A stretch of 44,951 bases of DNA from a virus. The stretch is taken from the UHGV virus genome UHGV-0212259, one strand, 5' to 3'. Of this stretch, positions 2,326 through 41,272 are shown piece after piece. Made by a program: the position numbers and the translations under genes. Under the pieces are notes generated by a model. That model saw only the letters and a program-made list of their open reading frames with translations, was not told where the DNA came from and made no database searches. Positions within the stretch are counted from its first letter, which is position 1; every line of letters starts with the position of its first letter.

Positions 2326-2407
2326 AGTCAGTATGTCCCCTGGACGTTGGAACCCGGGCCACCCGGATTTACATGTCAAGAATAAATTATTCCAACATGC
2401 AAGGCAA

Positions 2408-2671
2408 CTATTCCAGAATATTCCTCACGTAATCCTGCAACATGAACACTTTCAGACGCAGTTGCCGCACGCATTCTGCGTTCTGAACGTCGATAGCTAA
2501 ATCCTCGTCCGCGTCGCTACTTGGTGGCGCCAGTTTGCACGGCGGCTGCATCATCGTCGTATCCGGGGATGGAATTGGCGTTGGCGACGGCGCGGGACTT
2601 GAGCTGCACGCGCTCAGGGTCAAAAGTGCACACGCTGCGACCAGGCGTTTTAATGTACTTAACGACTTCAC
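2408..2671 (-). CDS. o-spanin (Rz1-like outer-membrane lipoprotein)
   Basis: GTG start with GAGGTGA SD; signal peptide with lipobox LSAC; Pro-rich mature part; starts inside the i-spanin ORF in another frame and extends past its stop. Confidence 0.6.
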   Translation of the reverse strand: MKSLSTLKRLVAACALLTLSACSSSPAPSPTPIPSPDTTMMQPPCKLAPPSSDADEDLAIDVQNAECVRQLRLKVFMLQDYVRNILE

Positions 2672-2903
2672 GGGTAATCACCTCTGATTTCGTCTTGCCT
2701 TCGTTGTCAGCGGCTGCAGCCTTTGATTCGTCCTGCTGCTGCCGTTGTGTTTTCTTCGCTAACTCAGCCTGTGCCTTCTGCTGCTGCTGCGAAACGAGAT
2801 TCGCCCGGCCTTCGCTCCAGCCGCTGCGATACTGGTAGATGCCGTGTGCGTAAGCCAGGATGATGAAACATGCTCCCGCTACGACAGTTGCTTTAAGATT
2901 CAT
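2517..2903 (-). CDS. i-spanin (Rz-like inner-membrane spanin)
   Basis: N-terminal TM helix (VVAGACFIILAYAHGIY) followed by a Gln/Ala/Lys-rich coiled coil; overlaps the lipoprotein ORF in typical spanin architecture. Confidence 0.6.
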   Translation of the reverse strand: MNLKATVVAGACFIILAYAHGIYQYRSGWSEGRANLVSQQQQKAQAELAKKTQRQQQDESKAAAADNEGKTKSEVITREVVKYIKTPGRSVCTFDPERVQLKSRAVANANSIPGYDDDAAAVQTGATK

Positions 2904-3221
2904 GTTTCTCCTTTCTCGATAAGTAAAGCCCCGCCATAAAGCGGGGCGCTAGTCCTTATCATTTAAACATAGAAACGGCATAATCTCAGTAAACCAGTTA
3001 CTTTTTACACAAGCAATAGACTATGGCCCTTCCGAACGCGTCAGCGTAACTACACTCGGACTTAACGTCCGGCTCCGTTACCTGCCACGCCGCGGTCGCT
3101 TGTTCATACTTCACAAGCTCAGGTGGAGCTTAGCACATTTTTGGTGAAAAGTCAACTATTCGAATAGTTTATTCCAACATTTACAATTGAGTGGAATAAC
3201 CGGAATACATAAACAAATAGT

Positions 3222-3253
3222 TTGCGCACCCCAATATAATAGGGTACTATTCA
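3222..3253 (+). promoter_or_regulatory. Promoter with overlapping palindromic operator (type A: TTGCGC-N7-TATAAT overlapping TAATAGGGTACTATTCA)
   Basis: TATAAT at 3235..3240; 23-nt core CCAATATAATAGGGTACTATTCA identical to sites at 5375..5397 and 38826..38848; first ATG 25 nt downstream. Confidence 0.55.
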
Positions 3254-3277
3254 TTCTATCGAACCGGGGAGGCCGTC

Positions 3278-3379
3278 ATGTTAGTCGTTATTTCAGTAGT
3301 AATTGCAGTTGATGCGGTGATGTTTCTTTGGGCTTGTAGCGGTATTGGTGACATTGACACGGGTAATGGTGAACTATGA
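3278..3379 (+). CDS. Small hydrophobic peptide (33 aa), first gene of a plus-strand insert cassette
   Basis: GGGGAGG SD then ATG; MLVVISVVIAVDAVMFLWACSGIG...; stop overlaps next start (ATGA). Confidence 0.3.
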   Translation: MLVVISVVIAVDAVMFLWACSGIGDIDTGNGEL

Positions 3380-3720
3380 AATATATTAAATTAGCAGTAG
3401 CAGGTGTTGTAGCCGTTTGTTTGAGTGGTTGCGTAAGGTCGTTGCCAGACCCGGCTTTACAGGTTTATCAGGCAGGGGATACAACGGCAACATGTAATCA
3501 GTTACTATCGAGAATCGCCACGACAAAACAAGCTCAAGCCAACGCTACGCACCGTGTTAATAAGCAAATAGGTACTAACGTTGTACTCGGTGTTACAGGC
3601 GCATTCCTGATTGTTCCGCTGTTCTTTATGGACACGGGCGCCGGGCCTTCTATGGACGAGATGACAGCCGGTAATCGTCTGTCGCAGTTACAACAAACAT
3701 ACGACGAGAAATGCAAATGA
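3376..3720 (+). CDS. Lipoprotein with a C-proximal hydrophobic segment; candidate superinfection-exclusion / receptor-masking protein
   Basis: Signal peptide with lipobox LSGC (MKYIKLAVAGVVAVCLSGC); hydrophobic stretch NVVLGVTGAFLIVPLFF; opposite strand to flanking late genes; own promoter and terminator. Confidence 0.55.
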   Translation: MKYIKLAVAGVVAVCLSGCVRSLPDPALQVYQAGDTTATCNQLLSRIATTKQAQANATHRVNKQIGTNVVLGVTGAFLIVPLFFMDTGAGPSMDEMTAGNRLSQLQQTYDEKCK

Positions 3721-3785
3721 CAAATAGTGTGATGTTTTATTTTGTTTTGTGGGTATCGGCTGCGGCTATCACCGCGATGTTCATA

Positions 3786-3816
3786 TAAAAATAAAGCCCC
3801 ATAGCGGGGCTTTTTA
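3786..3816. terminator. Bidirectional rho-independent terminator
   Basis: A-run, hairpin AGCCCC-atagc-GGGGCT (3795..3811), T-run; lies between convergent genes. Confidence 0.6.
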
Positions 3817-11403: not shown

Positions 11404-11904
11404 TCATTTAACAGCCCTCCCGATAGCCTCAGCCTCTTGCCACGGTTTACCGTCGAACAGGGCCAGACGCCCTGCCGTACGGCGACGCAGGCCTAGTAGC
11501 GGTTTGCCGTTCTGGTTGATGAACAGCGCCAGCTTGGCACGCAGGGCCACAACATCGCCCGAGCGGAGTGCCTTACCCGTGCCGGTGGTAGCTGCAATCA
11601 CACCGGCGCCCGCGTTATACACCAGGTCGCAAACAGCGTCGAACTGCGCCTGTGTCAGTGAATGGTGCGCCACCGAATCCACCGCAGCTACGGCCTTAGC
11701 CATATCGCGATTAAGTAACAGGAGGCCTTGTCCCGGTGTGATAGTCTGCCCGGCCTTAACATGTGGGCCATAGCTTCCGTACCCAATAGTAAGGTACTTC
11801 TCATTTGGCGTAGCACGATATGCAGTTCCACGGAACCCCTCGAACGCAGCGGTAAAATGCAATCCATTATCTGAAATGTTTCGAGACACGCTTATGCCCT
11901 CCAT
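11404..11904 (-). CDS. Endolysin, lysozyme-like glycoside hydrolase (GH24-type)
   Basis: 166 aa; N-terminal FEGFRGTAY...YLTIGYGSYG motif block typical of phage lysozymes; directly downstream of two membrane-protein genes. Confidence 0.75.
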   Translation of the reverse strand: MEGISVSRNISDNGLHFTAAFEGFRGTAYRATPNEKYLTIGYGSYGPHVKAGQTITPGQGLLLLNRDMAKAVAAVDSVAHHSLTQAQFDAVCDLVYNAGAGVIAATTGTGKALRSGDVVALRAKLALFINQNGKPLLGLRRRTAGRLALFDGKPWQEAEAIGRAVK

Positions 11905-12139
11905 ACGACAGCCACGCCTGACGAATCTGGCGCAGCGCGACTAATGTGATTAATGTCTCAGGCAGCGTAGGCGACATGCTGCCCTGTAACAGGTGAATAC
12001 ATCCGGCGGCACAGACGATAGCAGTCAGGATATAGAGAACACGCCCGAACAGCCCGTCGTCCACGCGTTCATTATACACGTTGAACAGGGACGAAGCGCC
12101 CATTGCCAGCATTACGACAAACCAGAATAGCTCAGTCAT
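11867..12139 (-). CDS. Small membrane protein, second holin or antiholin
   Basis: About 90 aa from ATG 12139 (ATGA overlap with upstream holin stop); two predicted TM helices; overlaps endolysin start. Confidence 0.45.
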   Translation of the reverse strand: MTELFWFVVMLAMGASSLFNVYNERVDDGLFGRVLYILTAIVCAAGCIHLLQGSMSPTLPETLITLVALRQIRQAWLSYGGHKRVSKHFR

Positions 12140-12440
12140 GCGGTCCTCCTGGGCGGGCAATATCGCCGCCCGATACGATGCCAGAAAGGCGGGAATAGAT
12201 AGGCATCCAGAGAATGGCAATGATGAATCCGAGGCCAGCTATCTCGCGCTCCCCGGTAATGCCAAACCATTGAGCTGCAAGAGGTGCGCCAAATACGGCG
12301 CAAGTGAAGCCGGTTGCGATAAAGCAGAAGCCGTCGATAGGGCCAGAAATAACGGACTTATGTTGTCGCAGTCCGATAACCCCTCCAGCAAGAGCGGCCG
12401 CCAGAAGCCACCCCGTCACTGTTTCAGTAAATTTATCCAA
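12132..12440 (-). CDS. Holin (multi-TM small membrane protein)
   Basis: 102 aa; TTG start; three hydrophobic segments; first gene of holin / membrane protein / endolysin cassette. Confidence 0.55.
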   Translation of the reverse strand: MDKFTETVTGWLLAAALAGGVIGLRQHKSVISGPIDGFCFIATGFTCAVFGAPLAAQWFGITGEREIAGLGFIIAILWMPIYSRLSGIVSGGDIARPGGPHD

Positions 12441-12499
12441 GATGAATCCTCCAGGTGCGTATTAAGTATGCAGTAACTGGAGGATACCACGGGTAGGAA

Positions 12500-12940
12500 T
12501 TATCCTAATAGTTGTTTGGTAATAATCTTGCCGCCGGTGTTAGTGTCGAACTTCGATGCAACGGCTACGCCGCCATGCGCCGAATATTCGCACTCCATAG
12601 CGGCTAATGCATATGGCGAGCCAGACCCCACGGCGGCGTACACATCAGCAACCGGAATAACTGAACTAAGTGCACAATCCCATGATTTATAGAACGCGAC
12701 TTTGTACACCTTTTCTGTGTCTTTCACGAACACCAGGGCTTCGAAATCGAAGTCATAATGTCTTGCCTGAAGGATATACGGACAATCGATAAGCATAGTT
12801 CCGACTCCGGCATCACCAGCTACCCCGATAACATAGACATCACTCTCATATATCTTTGTGTCTGTGTTGTAACAGTTACTTCCGCACACAACACGGGTGT
12901 CACAGGCCATTGTCTTTCCGTCAAACGCGATTGTAGTCAT
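12500..12940 (-). CDS. HslV/proteasome-beta-like N-terminal-nucleophile hydrolase (putative threonine peptidase)
   Basis: 146 aa; begins MTTIAFDG (Thr directly after Met as in HslV); VIGVAGDAG and AVGSGSPYALAA segments resemble HslV GFAGG and GSGGPYA blocks; similarity judged from memory. Confidence 0.5.
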   Translation of the reverse strand: MTTIAFDGKTMACDTRVVCGSNCYNTDTKIYESDVYVIGVAGDAGVGTMLIDCPYILQARHYDFDFEALVFVKDTEKVYKVAFYKSWDCALSSVIPVADVYAAVGSGSPYALAAMECEYSAHGGVAVASKFDTNTGGKIITKQLLG

Positions 12941-13230
12941 TTATGTCTCCAGATGTATTGTCGTCTCTGCGGTTTCGTCGGAATATCTTCATACCCCAGC
13001 GATTTCCAGTAATTAAATAACCTATTAGCGATAGCTGCGCGTTCCTGTGTTTTGAACTCACCGAGATTCACGGCCTTCCCGTTCTGAAATCCACAGGCGC
13101 GGACCGCTTTGCGTCTGGCCTGAATCTCTGGGTACAGCGAGTTACGGCGGCGCTTATGTATTCTGGTGTTCGCTCTCGGTGACAGCGGCGCAAGGCCGCT
13201 TCGTTTCAGGATGTCAGTTGCAAGAGACAT
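12937..13230 (-). CDS. Small basic protein, possible AP2-like DNA-binding domain
   Basis: About 97 aa from ATG 13230; segment NGKAVNLGEFKTQERAAIANRLFNYWKSLGYE resembles the AP2-like C-terminal region of the two HNH endonucleases in this window. Confidence 0.3.
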   Translation of the reverse strand: MSLATDILKRSGLAPLSPRANTRIHKRRRNSLYPEIQARRKAVRACGFQNGKAVNLGEFKTQERAAIANRLFNYWKSLGYEDIPTKPQRRQYIWRHK

Positions 13231-13517
13231 CACTCCACCCCTTCCACATGTGTAACAGCCCCACAGTTCGCGCACTCGACGTAATCCGGGAACTGGTCTT
13301 TGTATTTCTGTAACTCGGCGTTCACTTCTGCCAGTCTTGACACAAGCCCCTCTATTTCCATATCCGTAGTGGTTATGTAGTCCTGGAAACTGTCGTCCAG
13401 TTCCTTGTAATCTTCGTAACTTATCCAGTCGCCTTCGTCACTCTTAACCAGCTCATGATACGGGTGGCACGAGTTAACACACACAGCTCTAAACTCATAT
13501 CTCTGTACCATAATCAC
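13230..13517 (-). CDS. Hypothetical protein with C-terminal CxxC
   Basis: 95 aa; CVNSCHPYHE and YVECANCGAVTHV motifs. Confidence 0.35.
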   Translation of the reverse strand: MIMVQRYEFRAVCVNSCHPYHELVKSDEGDWISYEDYKELDDSFQDYITTTDMEIEGLVSRLAEVNAELQKYKDQFPDYVECANCGAVTHVEGVE

Positions 13518-13717
13518 TTCTCCTGTTTACCAAGTCGCTTAGGTGAGCATATAGCGCGTACCTCTGAATCGTTGGGCTTGTCGCCCTGAAACAGGAAGTG
13601 CGCGTTCTCTGCGGCGCGTGCTGCAGACTGGCACGCCTCCATCGAATAAAACGTTTCTGCTGCCGCTAGTTGCATCTGGCCCGCAGACAGTACCCAGATA
13701 AAGAGGATGCCGGTCAT
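13514..13717 (-). CDS. Small secreted/periplasmic protein (signal peptide)
   Basis: 67 aa; N-terminal hydrophobic signal-like segment MTGILFIWVLSAGQMQLAAA. Confidence 0.35.
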   Translation of the reverse strand: MTGILFIWVLSAGQMQLAAAETFYSMEACQSAARAAENAHFLFQGDKPNDSEVRAICSPKRLGKQEK

Positions 13718-14412
13718 TCAGGTATAACCCCTCCGCAGTTGTCGCATACTATCGTGTTTCCGTGGTAGGTACCGCAGTGGGCAGGAACGCACTGACATAC
13801 AGGAAGCCCCACGTCTTCCTTACGGCAACCAGATTGCTCGGCTATAACCCCGCATTTGGCACAACGCCTATGCTCTTCGCCGTTAGGGTAATAATATTCC
13901 CACTCATGTTTGCATTTCTGCGTATAGGCTTTCGGCTCATACTCCGGGTCATCCCACTCACGCACACCACATTCGCAGCAAAACCGACTACCAGGCACGT
14001 TGCCCTCGTGGCCTTCGGCAATAAACAATCCTGGAGCGATAATCCAATTGTGGTCGCATTCCTGAGTATCTTCTTTTCGGCAACCGGATTGTTCTGGTGC
14101 ATCCTTACATCCGAGTTCCTCAAGTGCTTTGCTAAGGTATTGGCGACGCATGGTGTCAGTCATTGCACTATTTGCCCGCCGGATGTACCCAATCGCGCCT
14201 TTAGGGTCCAGGTCAACGATTGAACGAAGACACATAACCTCGTTTTCAGCGCAATCCAGCGCACAGGTTAGTTCCTTAATCTGCGCCGAAGCATCACGTA
14301 ACTGATTCTTAAGTGACTGCACTTCATGCGCCAGGTCTTCGCACCGGTTGTTATTTACCTGCTGCCGTAGCTGGTCAATCAGGTACTCGAATACTTCGTT
14401 TTTGTTACTCAT
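13714..14412 (-). CDS. Cys-rich protein with N-terminal coiled coil and internal repeat (probable zinc-binding)
   Basis: 232 aa; multiple CxxC pairs (CCECG, CAKCG, CDNCGG); the nonapeptide EQSGCRKED occurs twice. Confidence 0.45.
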   Translation of the reverse strand: MSNKNEVFEYLIDQLRQQVNNNRCEDLAHEVQSLKNQLRDASAQIKELTCALDCAENEVMCLRSIVDLDPKGAIGYIRRANSAMTDTMRRQYLSKALEELGCKDAPEQSGCRKEDTQECDHNWIIAPGLFIAEGHEGNVPGSRFCCECGVREWDDPEYEPKAYTQKCKHEWEYYYPNGEEHRRCAKCGVIAEQSGCRKEDVGLPVCQCVPAHCGTYHGNTIVCDNCGGVIPE

Positions 14413-38709: not shown

Positions 38710-38816
38710 TCTTTAATCCTTTGGTTAAGAGGTTACTGGTTAAGGTGAATGCGCCAGGCGGGAACCACCCGCTTTTCGTGTGCGACACTAGGCGCAAACT
38801 TATTCTAGCACACTAC

Positions 38817-39105: not shown

Positions 39106-40236
39106 ATGGCCCGGAAGAAAATAACCGACGAACAGTTACAGGAAGAATTGAACGCCGGTATGAAGAATATCGACATCGCCCGTAAATACGGCATCTCAGA
39201 CCGCGTTATTCGCATCCGTAAAGCGAAGCTGGCTAAGAAAGGCGTAGGCCACGGGCGGGACGTTAGCCACCTTGTGCCAGATGGCTACAAGATTAAAGGA
39301 ACATCGTCACTTGTGGACGAGTTAGGCAACACTAAACTGCAATGGGTTAAGACCGACACCGATGCGGAACGTCAGGTCGAGTTAATGAAGGCCGTAATCG
39401 AGGGCATGAAGTCGGAGATTACCCCCGTTGCTCCTGTTAAAGCCGTTCGCACCAAACGAGACGACAAGCTACTCAACCTTTACACTGTGTCTGATTTCCA
39501 TCTCGGTATGCTGGCCTGGGCCGACGAGAGTGGCGACGACTGGGATATGAAGATTGCAGAAGACCTGTTCTCCCGTTGGTTCGATGCGGCATTCCAGAAA
39601 GCACCGGATGCGGGGACTGGGGTTATTAACCTGCTGGGCGACTTCGCGCACTTCGATAGTCTGGTTGCCGTTACACCTGCAAGCGGTCACGCCCTTGACG
39701 CCGACACCCGTTACCAGAAACTTGTCCGCTACATGATTCGCATGGTCCGCCGTGTTGTCGATATGGCGCGGGTTAAGCATAAAAATGTTCGCTTGCTTAT
39801 CGTGCAAGGGAATCACGACGAAAGTGGCATGATTTGGTTGGCTGAGATGTTCAGTACGCTGTATGACAATGAGCCTCGTGTGCTCGTCGATACGTCACCG
39901 GATGTTTACAAGATGGTGCAACACGGCAAAACGACGCTGTTCTTCCATCACGGGCATAAAGCACGATTCGACGCTATTGAACCGGTTATGATTGCCAAGT
40001 TCCGTAAAGCGTTCGGCGAGAGTGTTTACAGCTACGCCCACGTAGGCCATCTGCACCACCAGAAGATTGTAGAAAGCCGTAACATGATTGTTGAGCAACA
40101 CCGCACCTTAGCGGCTAAAGACGCCTACGCCTCTCGCGGCGGATGGATGTCAGGTCGTAGTGCAAATGTAATTACTTATAGCGCCGAATATGGCGAGGTC
40201 GCACGTTTAACTATTTCACCGGAGATGCTGGGATGA
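39106..40236 (+). CDS. Calcineurin-like metallophosphoesterase with N-terminal HTH-like domain
   Basis: 376 aa; ordered motifs DFH, GDFAHFD, GNHDE, HHGH, GHLHH; N-terminal NIDIARKYGISDRVIRIRKAKL resembles an HTH. Confidence 0.65.
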   Translation: MARKKITDEQLQEELNAGMKNIDIARKYGISDRVIRIRKAKLAKKGVGHGRDVSHLVPDGYKIKGTSSLVDELGNTKLQWVKTDTDAERQVELMKAVIEGMKSEITPVAPVKAVRTKRDDKLLNLYTVSDFHLGMLAWADESGDDWDMKIAEDLFSRWFDAAFQKAPDAGTGVINLLGDFAHFDSLVAVTPASGHALDADTRYQKLVRYMIRMVRRVVDMARVKHKNVRLLIVQGNHDESGMIWLAEMFSTLYDNEPRVLVDTSPDVYKMVQHGKTTLFFHHGHKARFDAIEPVMIAKFRKAFGESVYSYAHVGHLHHQKIVESRNMIVEQHRTLAAKDAYASRGGWMSGRSANVITYSAEYGEVARLTISPEMLG

Positions 40237-40718
40237 AAGATATTGTGATTTTCGATTTAGACGGGACATTGGCGGATGGTACTCATCGTTTACACCTGCT
40301 GCCGAAAGATAACTACAACGAAACATGGGCGTGGAAACCCTTTAACATGGCGTGCAAAGATGATGCGCCGATTAAAGATAACATCGAACTATGTAACGCC
40401 CTTAATCGTCGCTATGCCGTTATCATTTTAACCGGCCGCAGTGATGACGCAGAAAAAGAAACCAGAATGTGGTTGCAGCGCCACCGCGTCGAATTTTACC
40501 AGTTAATCATGCGCAGCAAACACGACAACAGAAAAGACATCGTAATTAAAGAAGAGGTGTTACGTGCTATCGGGCTGGAAAGAATATTGTGCGCATTCGA
40601 CGACTCTCCCGCGGTAATAAAGCATTTCCGCAGCCTCGGCTTAACCACCCACGCGGTTACCGAATACGACTGTAACGGTGGCTCTGCACACTTAAAATCA
40701 CACGGGAGCGATAAGTAA
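40233..40718 (+). CDS. HAD-superfamily phosphatase (polynucleotide 3'-phosphatase / nucleotidase-like)
   Basis: 161 aa; motif I FDLDGTL at residues 7-13, motif II ILTGR, conserved Lys in NRKDIVIKEE, motif IV CAFDD; resembles phosphatase domain of T4 polynucleotide kinase (from memory). Confidence 0.6.
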   Translation: MKDIVIFDLDGTLADGTHRLHLLPKDNYNETWAWKPFNMACKDDAPIKDNIELCNALNRRYAVIILTGRSDDAEKETRMWLQRHRVEFYQLIMRSKHDNRKDIVIKEEVLRAIGLERILCAFDDSPAVIKHFRSLGLTTHAVTEYDCNGGSAHLKSHGSDK

Positions 40719-41272
40719 TGGCTAAGGTAATTATTCTTAATGGTCCGGCGGGTTGCGGGAAAGACACACTTGCTATGGCGCTGGTAGAAATGGGCTTTGC
40801 GAAAGGAACTACCAGTTTCAAGAATCCAATGTTCGATATTGCTTTGGCAGCGTTAGGCCCGGATGCTTACCGCGAATTTCTCGACGGCTACGACGACCGG
40901 GCACGGAAAGAAAAGCCAGAGGGTTTTCTTAATGGGTTGTCCCGTCGTCAGTTCATGATTGCCGTTTCTGAGCAATTCATTAAACCGGTATTCGGTGATG
41001 ATTATTTCGGTAAGTATCTTGCTGAAAACTTGCCAGACGGCAACGAAGTTTTTGTAGTGTCCGACGGTGGATTCGCCAGTGAAGTTGCCCCTATCGTCGC
41101 CGCGGGGCATGACGTGCGAATCGTTCGCCTCCATCGTGACGGCTATACATTTGAGGGGGACAGCCGTGGTTATCTGTATGGCGTTGATGGTGTAAAAGAT
41201 TACGATACCTACATCATACCAGGTGATGTTAAATCGAACGTTATAGACATTGCTTTAAAATTAGGTTTGTAA
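40718..41272 (+). CDS. P-loop nucleotide kinase, dNMP kinase-like
   Basis: 184 aa; Walker A GPAGCGKDT at residues 9-17; overall pattern resembles T4 gene 1 dNMP kinase (from memory). Confidence 0.55.
   Translation: MAKVIILNGPAGCGKDTLAMALVEMGFAKGTTSFKNPMFDIALAALGPDAYREFLDGYDDRARKEKPEGFLNGLSRRQFMIAVSEQFIKPVFGDDYFGKYLAENLPDGNEVFVVSDGGFASEVAPIVAAGHDVRIVRLHRDGYTFEGDSRGYLYGVDGVKDYDTYIIPGDVKSNVIDIALKLGL

Follow-up and report, generated by a model that had tools for sequence, protein, structure and literature searches.

A proteasome-like gene upstream of the holin

The virus genome UHGV-0212259 was analysed as a single stretch of 44,951 nucleotides (hereafter the window), which amounts to essentially the whole genome of a Kagunavirus (Guernseyvirinae) and is about 90% identical to the Escherichia phages BUCT825, CR01 and NTEC3. 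The gene considered here is an open reading frame (ORF) of 146 amino acids (aa) on the minus strand at 12500..12940, with its ATG at 12940, which encodes a proteasome-like peptidase of the PPH family. A preliminary description of the window had presented this product, leaving its strand (minus) unstated, as a phage-encoded relative of HslV and the proteasome beta subunit situated directly upstream of a holin. The ORF and the sequence blocks quoted for it are real, with MTTIAFDG at residues 1–8, VIGVAGDAG at residues 37–45 and AVGSGSPYALAA at residues 103–114, and the product as a whole runs in the order MTTIAFDGKTMACDTRVVCGSN...VIGVAGDAG...AVGSGSPYALAAMECEYS...FDTNTGGKIITKQLLG. The position is also as described, since a gap of 59 nt separates the gene from the holin on the same strand.

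Fold and catalytic residues

Single-sequence searches with this protein (Pfam, NCBIfam and phmmer against the PDB) all gave sub-threshold scores, the best PDB matches by phmmer having E ~0.02, and its placement required profiles and structure. The protein matches phrog_1040, annotated as "peptidase HslV family", with an E of 2.8e-33 and 116.7 bits, residues 1–143 aligning to profile positions 14–155 of 277. When a profile built from 33 family sequences was compared with the PDB, Thermotoga HslV (1m4y) ranked first (E 1.2e-9), ahead of other HslVs, proteasome beta5 and BPH, and a profile of 141 sequences aligned to E. coli HslV in hhalign with 97.6% probability (E 4e-12). The resemblance to HslV and the proteasome beta subunit that the preliminary description had seen in short motifs is therefore far beyond chance.

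The AlphaFold2 monomer model (predicted local distance difference test, pLDDT, 94; predicted template modelling score, pTM, 0.89) bears this out, as the predicted structure is an unambiguous match to the proteasome-beta/HslV-type N-terminal nucleophile (Ntn) fold. A single helix (residues 44–51) lies in the model between strands 36–41 and 66–72, where HslV and proteasome subunits have two, and both HslV alignments (the PDB profile comparison and hhalign) leave a gap of ~20 residues at this place, which corresponds to helix H2. Helices H3 and H4 are intact in the model and are the most conserved of the helices (A111, A114, M115, G118, A121, A124, A128). In the proteasome superfamily, H3 and H4 form the ring-ring contacts, while the loop after H1/H2 lines the pore (PMC8665760). 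Because H3 and H4 are kept, stacking of PPH rings stays plausible; the model further suggests that the pore entrance would be ungated and that canonical docking of HslU is unlikely.

The catalytic positions were compared across 141 representatives, one per 50%-identity cluster and 27–57% identical to the query. These are the sequences that start with M-[T/S], out of 149 listed representatives, and 124 of them begin with MTT. The hhalign register pairs T2/D14/K29/G39/GSG of the window protein with T1/D17/K33/G45/G123-S124-G125 of HslV. Thr2 (codon at 12935–12937), the counterpart of Thr1, is threonine in 139 representatives and serine in 2; Asp14 (12899–12901), the counterpart of Asp17, is aspartate in 138 and glutamate in 3; and Lys29 (12854–12856), the counterpart of Lys33, is present in all 141. 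At Gly39, which corresponds to Gly45 in HslV and Gly47 in the proteasome, 104 sequences have glycine and 23 alanine, and the second glycine of this motif, Gly42, is kept in 140 of 141. The Gly105-Ser106-Gly107 motif (12620–12628) corresponds to Gly128-Ser129-Gly130; both of its glycines are invariant (141/141 each), and Ser106 is serine in 127 sequences and threonine in 9. Finally, the Asp166-like Asp132 is found in 133 of 141, and the Ser169-like Thr135 is threonine in 98, serine in 30 and cysteine in 12.

Thr2, Lys29 and Ser106 (the preliminary description had spoken of Thr/Lys/Ser catalytic residues) thus align with the HslV and proteasome sites and are conserved among the representatives. 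As it also pointed out, the threonine directly follows Met1 and could be exposed by removal of the methionine. A threonine in this position makes the N-terminus a permitted substrate of methionine aminopeptidase, and E. coli HslV likewise has no propeptide. Taken together, the conserved residue set supports a catalytically competent Ntn threonine enzyme, although the activity itself is something that we infer from sequence.

Membership of the PPH family

The PPH family was described by Fuchs et al. in 2021 as proteins of ~140 residues from Caudovirales phages and prophage regions that have neither H2 nor a propeptide, the criterion being a compact subunit without insertions in which the catalytic Thr1/Asp17/Lys33 and Gly47 are retained (PMC8665760). 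The same authors found that PPH does not co-occur with an AAA+ partner and that its genomic context gives no information (PMC8665760). Every defining feature of the family that can be tested is present in the window protein, and the gene is a PPH member of a kind that is already known. The family proper of HslV is ruled out by the absence of H2 and by scores far under the cutoffs of the NCBIfam HslV equivalogs (TIGR03692 / NF003964; 12.8 bits against 157.75, and 12.0 against 137).

Nor is the gene the unusual find that it was first taken for, because the family has been named since 2021 and is routinely annotated. NCBI nr contains an identical protein, DAG81170.1, labelled "protease", and many GenBank records carry the labels "peptidase HslV family", "ATP-dependent protease" or "protease"; HslV genes without HslU have already been noted in a paper on jumbo phages (PMC7823757). 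The family comprises 821 clusters at 50% identity (E<=1e-3), mostly of 135–165 aa and with an MTT start, and homologues were found in 329 phage records, in 355 confirmed viral-contig stretches and in 41 viral structure clusters with the PPH fold.

Some relatives are longer, with 230–293 aa (Vibrio phage S4-7, L001:6001-6879; Aeromonas phage phiA019, L002:91-966; and P0121-P0128). In these long forms an acidic linker joins the PPH-like domain to a C-terminal domain without a Pfam match, and their Pfam Proteasome scores of 24–36 bits are above the threshold that the window protein misses. They may be the published "RPC" group with a C-terminal extension. A helix-extension-helix motif was suspected from sequence in this extension and was dropped, as it had no Pfam support. 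Two copies of the gene can also occur together: the 42-kb contig IMGVR_UViG_3300047469_000099 has PPH genes near its opposite ends (L034:3560-3958 and L050:6001-6405), which are 81% identical with catalytic residues intact in both, an arrangement that could have arisen by real duplication, by terminal redundancy or by chimeric assembly. Two HslV-like genes have also been reported in the jumbo phage pSal-SNUABM-04.

Neighbouring genes and expression signals

The gene immediately upstream (12937..13275, minus strand) matches phrog_9632, a PHROG with no assigned function, and it adjoins the holin directly in relatives that have no PPH. The ORF coordinates and the sequence place the PPH ATG in an ATGA overlap with the TGA of this gene (12937..12940, minus strand), which suggests translational coupling of PPH to the upstream gene, and a GGAG that reads as a Shine-Dalgarno sequence lies 6 nt before the ATG (12947..12950, minus strand). 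The longest ORF of the upstream gene has 112 aa with a GTG start, and its profile match begins only at residue 16, so that this ORF is probably over-extended at its start.

Downstream of PPH, after the 59-nt gap, lies a class II-like holin with a TTG start (12132..12440, minus strand), recognised by phrog_2359 (E 5.2e-31) and by the GenBank annotations of relatives. A GGAGG stands ahead of this TTG, and the 59-nt leader (12441–12499) is near-identical in phages with and without PPH, which means that the translation signals of the holin are independent of the PPH gene. A second holin, class I-like, follows at 11867..12139 (minus strand; phrog_2508, E 2.4e-34, residues 28–117). Its listed ORF extends to a TTG at 12220, and the profile match starts from residue 28, at the ATG at 12139; the annotation in relatives has 273 nt. 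The endolysin, a phage lysozyme, is encoded at 11404..11904 (minus strand; PF00959, E 2.4e-25, and endolysin PHROGs). These lysis genes and about ten small ORFs lie between PPH and the small terminase subunit gene (TerS), which is ~3.4 kb away in the window. A scan for promoters and terminators around PPH returned none that exceeded the shuffled expectation.

Presence and absence among close relatives

Kagunavirus and its sister genus Jerseyvirus share the order PPH-holin-holin-endolysin, the Jerseyvirus PPH being 59% identical. At an identity of at least 60%, the holin is found in 120 phage records and PPH in only 39, and about two thirds of the Kagunavirus records with the holin are without PPH. 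Phage P AB-2017, the holin of which is 99% identical and the genome of which is 90% identical over 31 kb, has no PPH genome-wide (tblastn E>4), and both in P AB-2017 and in K1ind1, which are viable lytic isolates, the upstream gene abuts the holin with PPH absent at the locus. Junction mapping by blastn together with the junction sequences delimits a 421-bp segment (12518..12938) that is present in the window and missing from these two phages. The 18 nt at the end of the PPH ORF (12500–12517, encoding KQLLG and the stop) remain in the PPH-less genomes, the copy in K1ind1 having diverged, and the PPH-less junction reads ...CATAAAT followed by AAACAACTATTAGGATAA. Since Jerseyvirus has PPH at the same place, a deletion is the more parsimonious account of its absence.

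In genomes that carry it, PPH is under purifying selection, the pairwise ratio of nonsynonymous to synonymous substitution rates (dN/dS) among 9 Kagunavirus PPH genes having a median of 0.14 and a range of 0.055–0.19. The combination of viable PPH-less relatives and purifying selection indicates that PPH is functional yet dispensable for growth and lysis. It is therefore an accessory gene, and the pattern implies a conditional benefit. Its dispensability argues against a core role in the timing of lysis.

The annotation of P AB-2017 also places the spanin genes (L089:20225-20799) among head genes, far from the holin-endolysin cassette, so that the lysis genes of this phage group are split over two places. 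From the shared gene order, the corresponding spanin region of the window would be at roughly 2400–3800.

Genomic context across phage lineages

We collected 80 viral-contig loci with the family profile and grouped them into 34 lineages (<55% PPH identity), in which neighbouring ORFs were clustered and annotated with PHROGs. Gene calling in these neighbourhoods was home-made (longest ORFs plus clustering), and spurious clusters of antisense ORFs were ignored. The annotated recurrent neighbours are all on the PPH strand, with the exception of two endolysins. In 12 of the 34 lineages a terminase gene (TerS or the large-subunit gene TerL) begins within 2.6 kb downstream on the same strand, and several terminase families are involved; the expectation is ~6.5% (binomial P ~8e-7), for a crude null and lineages that are not fully independent. 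PPH lies inside head/connector modules in 6 lineages. Two of these (2 of the 34) have it in the classical prohead-protease slot, one in the order MuF, an 83-aa protein, PPH, scaffold and major capsid protein (L070) and the other in the order portal ... PPH, a 286-aa protein and a probable coat protein (L044); in two lineages (L078 and L052) PPH is between the Ad1 adaptor and the Neck1 protein.

Other proximities say less. Lysis genes are found within 5 kb of PPH in 8/34 lineages, in line with expectation, given that the terminase is often preceded by a lysis cassette. Some packaging or virion gene is within 5 kb in 21/34, which is uninformative, since about half of a small phage genome consists of them; of these proximities only the close position before the terminase looks enriched, and that against a crude null. 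Other copies have helicase, DNA polymerase, RtcB, rIIA/B or tRNA genes as neighbours, especially in large Vibrio and Aeromonas phages and in jumbo phages of Erwinia (115–240 kb for these groups). Our reading is that PPH favours the module boundaries of the late region, the site before the holin in Guernseyvirinae being one instance. On this ground a late-acting role, or one in morphogenesis, is retained as a minority hypothesis. The tendency adds modestly to the 2021 finding of no informative context, and the accessory status in Kagunavirus with its clean deletion allele is a further addition.

Other features of the window

Three further features of the window were observed. A three-gene cluster at 39106-41272 (plus strand) stands in opposite orientation within the minus-strand tail region and encodes a calcineurin-like metallophosphoesterase (weak Pfam match), a PNKP-type HAD phosphatase (PF25109, E 7e-20) and a 184-aa protein that relatives label "ATPase". 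It looks like an RNA-end-healing or repair module, possibly directed against host anticodon nucleases. The Rfam int-alpA RNA motif RF02996 matches at 38734-38798 (minus strand) with 36.4 bits, just over the gathering score of 35.8. At 13714-14412 (minus strand) there is a 232-aa Cys-rich protein with AEQSGCRKED twice and several CxxC pairs, for which Pfam and PADLOC gave no match.

Proposed function and alternatives

The evidence is best described by a stand-alone N-terminal-threonine peptidase, probably ring-forming and ungated, that acts on accessible polypeptides and is a conditionally useful accessory of the phage. We give this reading a probability of roughly 0.65, with higher confidence in the chemistry and lower confidence in the oligomeric state and in independence from HslU. 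The fold, the conserved catalytic set, the lack of H2 and of HslU, dispensability and purifying selection are observed, whereas activity, oligomeric state, independence from HslU and timing of expression are inferred. Host methionine aminopeptidase would take off Met1 and expose Thr2 as the nucleophile, Asp14 and Lys29 would activate it, Gly39/Gly42 would supply the oxyanion hole, and Ser106, Asp132 and Thr135 would hold the active site together. The subunit is predicted to keep the beta-sandwich, H1 and the ring-stacking helices H3 and H4, and to have lost H2 and the pore-loop region. If rings like those of HslV or BPH form, their entrance would be ungated and the canonical pocket for the HslU tail incomplete, from which it follows that there is most likely no dedicated unfoldase and that the substrates are peptides or unfolded or exposed polypeptides. 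The gene itself is an accessory at the lysis/packaging boundary, dispensable for lysis and growth and conserved by selection where present.

Several points weigh against this reading. The score for Pfam Proteasome (PF00227) is 21.2 bits, just under the gathering threshold of 22.4, and the literature searched on phage HslV-like and PPH proteins consists of mentions in genome annotations and the 2021 bioinformatic paper, with no biochemistry on any member. HslV is the best structural match and the host has HslU, which leaves room for a non-canonical partnership. The same fold, moreover, acts as a ligase and not as a protease in connectase (PMC8665760).

That last point extends to the possibility that the Ntn chemistry of PPH is other than proteolysis, for example that of a connectase-like ligase or transpeptidase, or of an amidase. 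Connectase shares both the fold and the catalytic threonine (PMC8665760), but PPH has none of its helical insertion between S3 and S4, keeps H1, and has every residue of the proteasome set, those matching Ser129, Asp166 and Ser169 among them, so we consider a non-protease highly improbable. The partnership with host HslU deserves somewhat more credit. PPH rings might serve as an alternative core that docks the host unfoldase, giving an ATP-dependent protease with a specificity chosen by the phage; the E. coli host encodes hslVU, PPH resembles E. coli HslV in having no propeptide, and the phage encodes no unfoldase of its own. With E. coli HslU as the query, neither HslU nor another unfoldase was found in the window (tblastn E>1, no phmmer match), in agreement with what the preliminary description had said of HslU-like ATPases, and annotated relatives have only helicases, a terminase and the small 184-aa "ATPase". 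However, the pocket for the C-terminal tail of HslU in E. coli HslV is made by Phe54, Phe57, Ala79/Lys80 and Gln114 (PMC6429459). Of these, Ala79 and Lys80 lie in the segment deleted from PPH, while Phe54 and Phe57 align to Thr48 and Ile51. Helix H2, which contributes with the other apical helix, H1, to this inter-subunit pocket, is missing, so that canonical docking to host HslU, which the preliminary description had entertained, is doubtful; the scores far under the HslV equivalog cutoffs and the lack of a co-occurring AAA+ partner reported by the authors of the family (PMC8665760) point the same way, and we regard an HslU-dependent core as rather unlikely. A protease for host takeover or counter-defence, which would cleave a single host protein or a small number of them (an immune sensor, for example) and bring a host-dependent advantage, is unlikely as well but not negligible. 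The distribution of PPH is patchy between close relatives while its sequence is under purifying selection where it occurs, as is typical of accessory genes with a conditional use, and PPH is widespread over unrelated phage backbones. Against this stand the lack of direct evidence, the lack of a match to PADLOC or anti-defence families, a neighbourhood analysis that gave no conserved partner or target gene, and the fact that compartmental proteasome-like enzymes are usually not sequence-specific without an adaptor.

The remaining alternatives draw on gene position. A regulator that times lysis by degrading the holin, an antiholin or a host factor had been proposed from adjacency alone, and the gene order shared by Kagunavirus and Jerseyvirus, the lysis genes within 5 kb in 8/34 lineages and the absence of an above-chance terminator between PPH and the holin are consistent with it. 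But the holin occurs in far more records than PPH (120 against 39), P AB-2017 (genome-wide) and K1ind1 (at the locus) are viable and lytic without the gene, and PPH adjoins terminase/head or replication genes and not lysis genes in most lineages; since lysis cassettes commonly precede the terminase, the adjacency may merely reflect that junction, and a role in lysis timing now seems very improbable. Nearly as improbable is a morphogenesis or virion-associated protease that processes virion proteins, scaffold and capsid among the candidates, or removes the scaffold once the head is assembled. The downstream terminase genes in 12/34 lineages and the 6 lineages in head/connector modules, including the two in the prohead-protease slot (L070 and L044), speak for it. 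Yet PPH is dispensable in Kagunavirus, the lysis genes and some ten small ORFs stand between the window copy and TerS, the copies in phages of 115–240 kb are among early, tRNA or nucleotide-metabolism genes, and the enrichment depends on partly dependent lineages and a crude null expectation. Accessory genes, too, are classically found before the terminase and in gaps of structural operons. The prohead-protease class itself was rejected for the window gene, which is upstream of the lysis cassette, ~3.4 kb from TerS and dispensable, whereas that class occupies a position between portal and scaffold/capsid genes and is needed for head maturation. A variant of the stand-alone peptidase, still decidedly unlikely, is an open-pore, unfoldase-independent "mini-proteasome" encoded at the start of the packaging or head operon and acting late on a specific class of substrates, candidates being scaffold or other virion proteins or a host sensor of terminase, portal or capsid proteins. 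Such an enzyme would explain both the enrichment near terminase and head genes and the patchy, selected distribution.

Implications

In practical terms the outcome for the window is modest: the gene encodes a proteasome-like peptidase, existing annotation already says so, and it does not belong to the lysis machinery. The wider interest is that the searched literature contains no viral proteasome homologue of characterised function. No self-standing member of the proteasome superfamily would be smaller than a threonine protease of ~145 residues that has lost the docking helix for an unfoldase, and PPH bears on the working of such proteases in the absence of ATPase partners. Sister phages, with their natural deletion allele, provide a ready-made isogenic comparison for the role of PPH.

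Comparison with known systems

Compared with the beta subunits of the 20S proteasome (PF00227), the window protein scores just below the Pfam gathering threshold and has no propeptide, no alpha-ring partner, no H2 and no H5. BPH (PDB 5ovs, 5ovu) is a tetradecamer with subunits of ~185–200 aa, in which H2 is retained and the pore loop is long and acidic (PMC5777263; PMC8665760). HslV (ClpQ; PDB 1m4y, 1g3i, 1e94) shares with PPH the N-terminal threonine nucleophile and the counterparts of Asp17, Lys33, Gly45 and Ser124. It is, as the preliminary description had recognised, longer, by ~30 residues (176 aa with Met against 146 aa). H2 and the adjoining pore-loop segment are present in HslV and deleted in PPH, the residues of the HslU-tail pocket are lost or altered in PPH, and HslV has a cognate hslU partner whereas PPH has no partner gene in the window. 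HslV is a dodecamer of two stacked hexameric rings, while PPH is known from a monomer model in which H3 and H4 are intact.

The closest agreement is with the PPH family itself. The window protein has the expected length (146 aa, relatives being mostly of 135–165 aa), the missing H2 (in the AlphaFold2 model and in the ~20-residue gap to HslV), the MTT N-terminus without a propeptide, the conserved T2, D14, K29 and G39/G42, and the origin from a tailed phage, here a Kagunavirus genome. No defining feature differs, and the protein is an ordinary member of the family, equivalent to phrog_1040.
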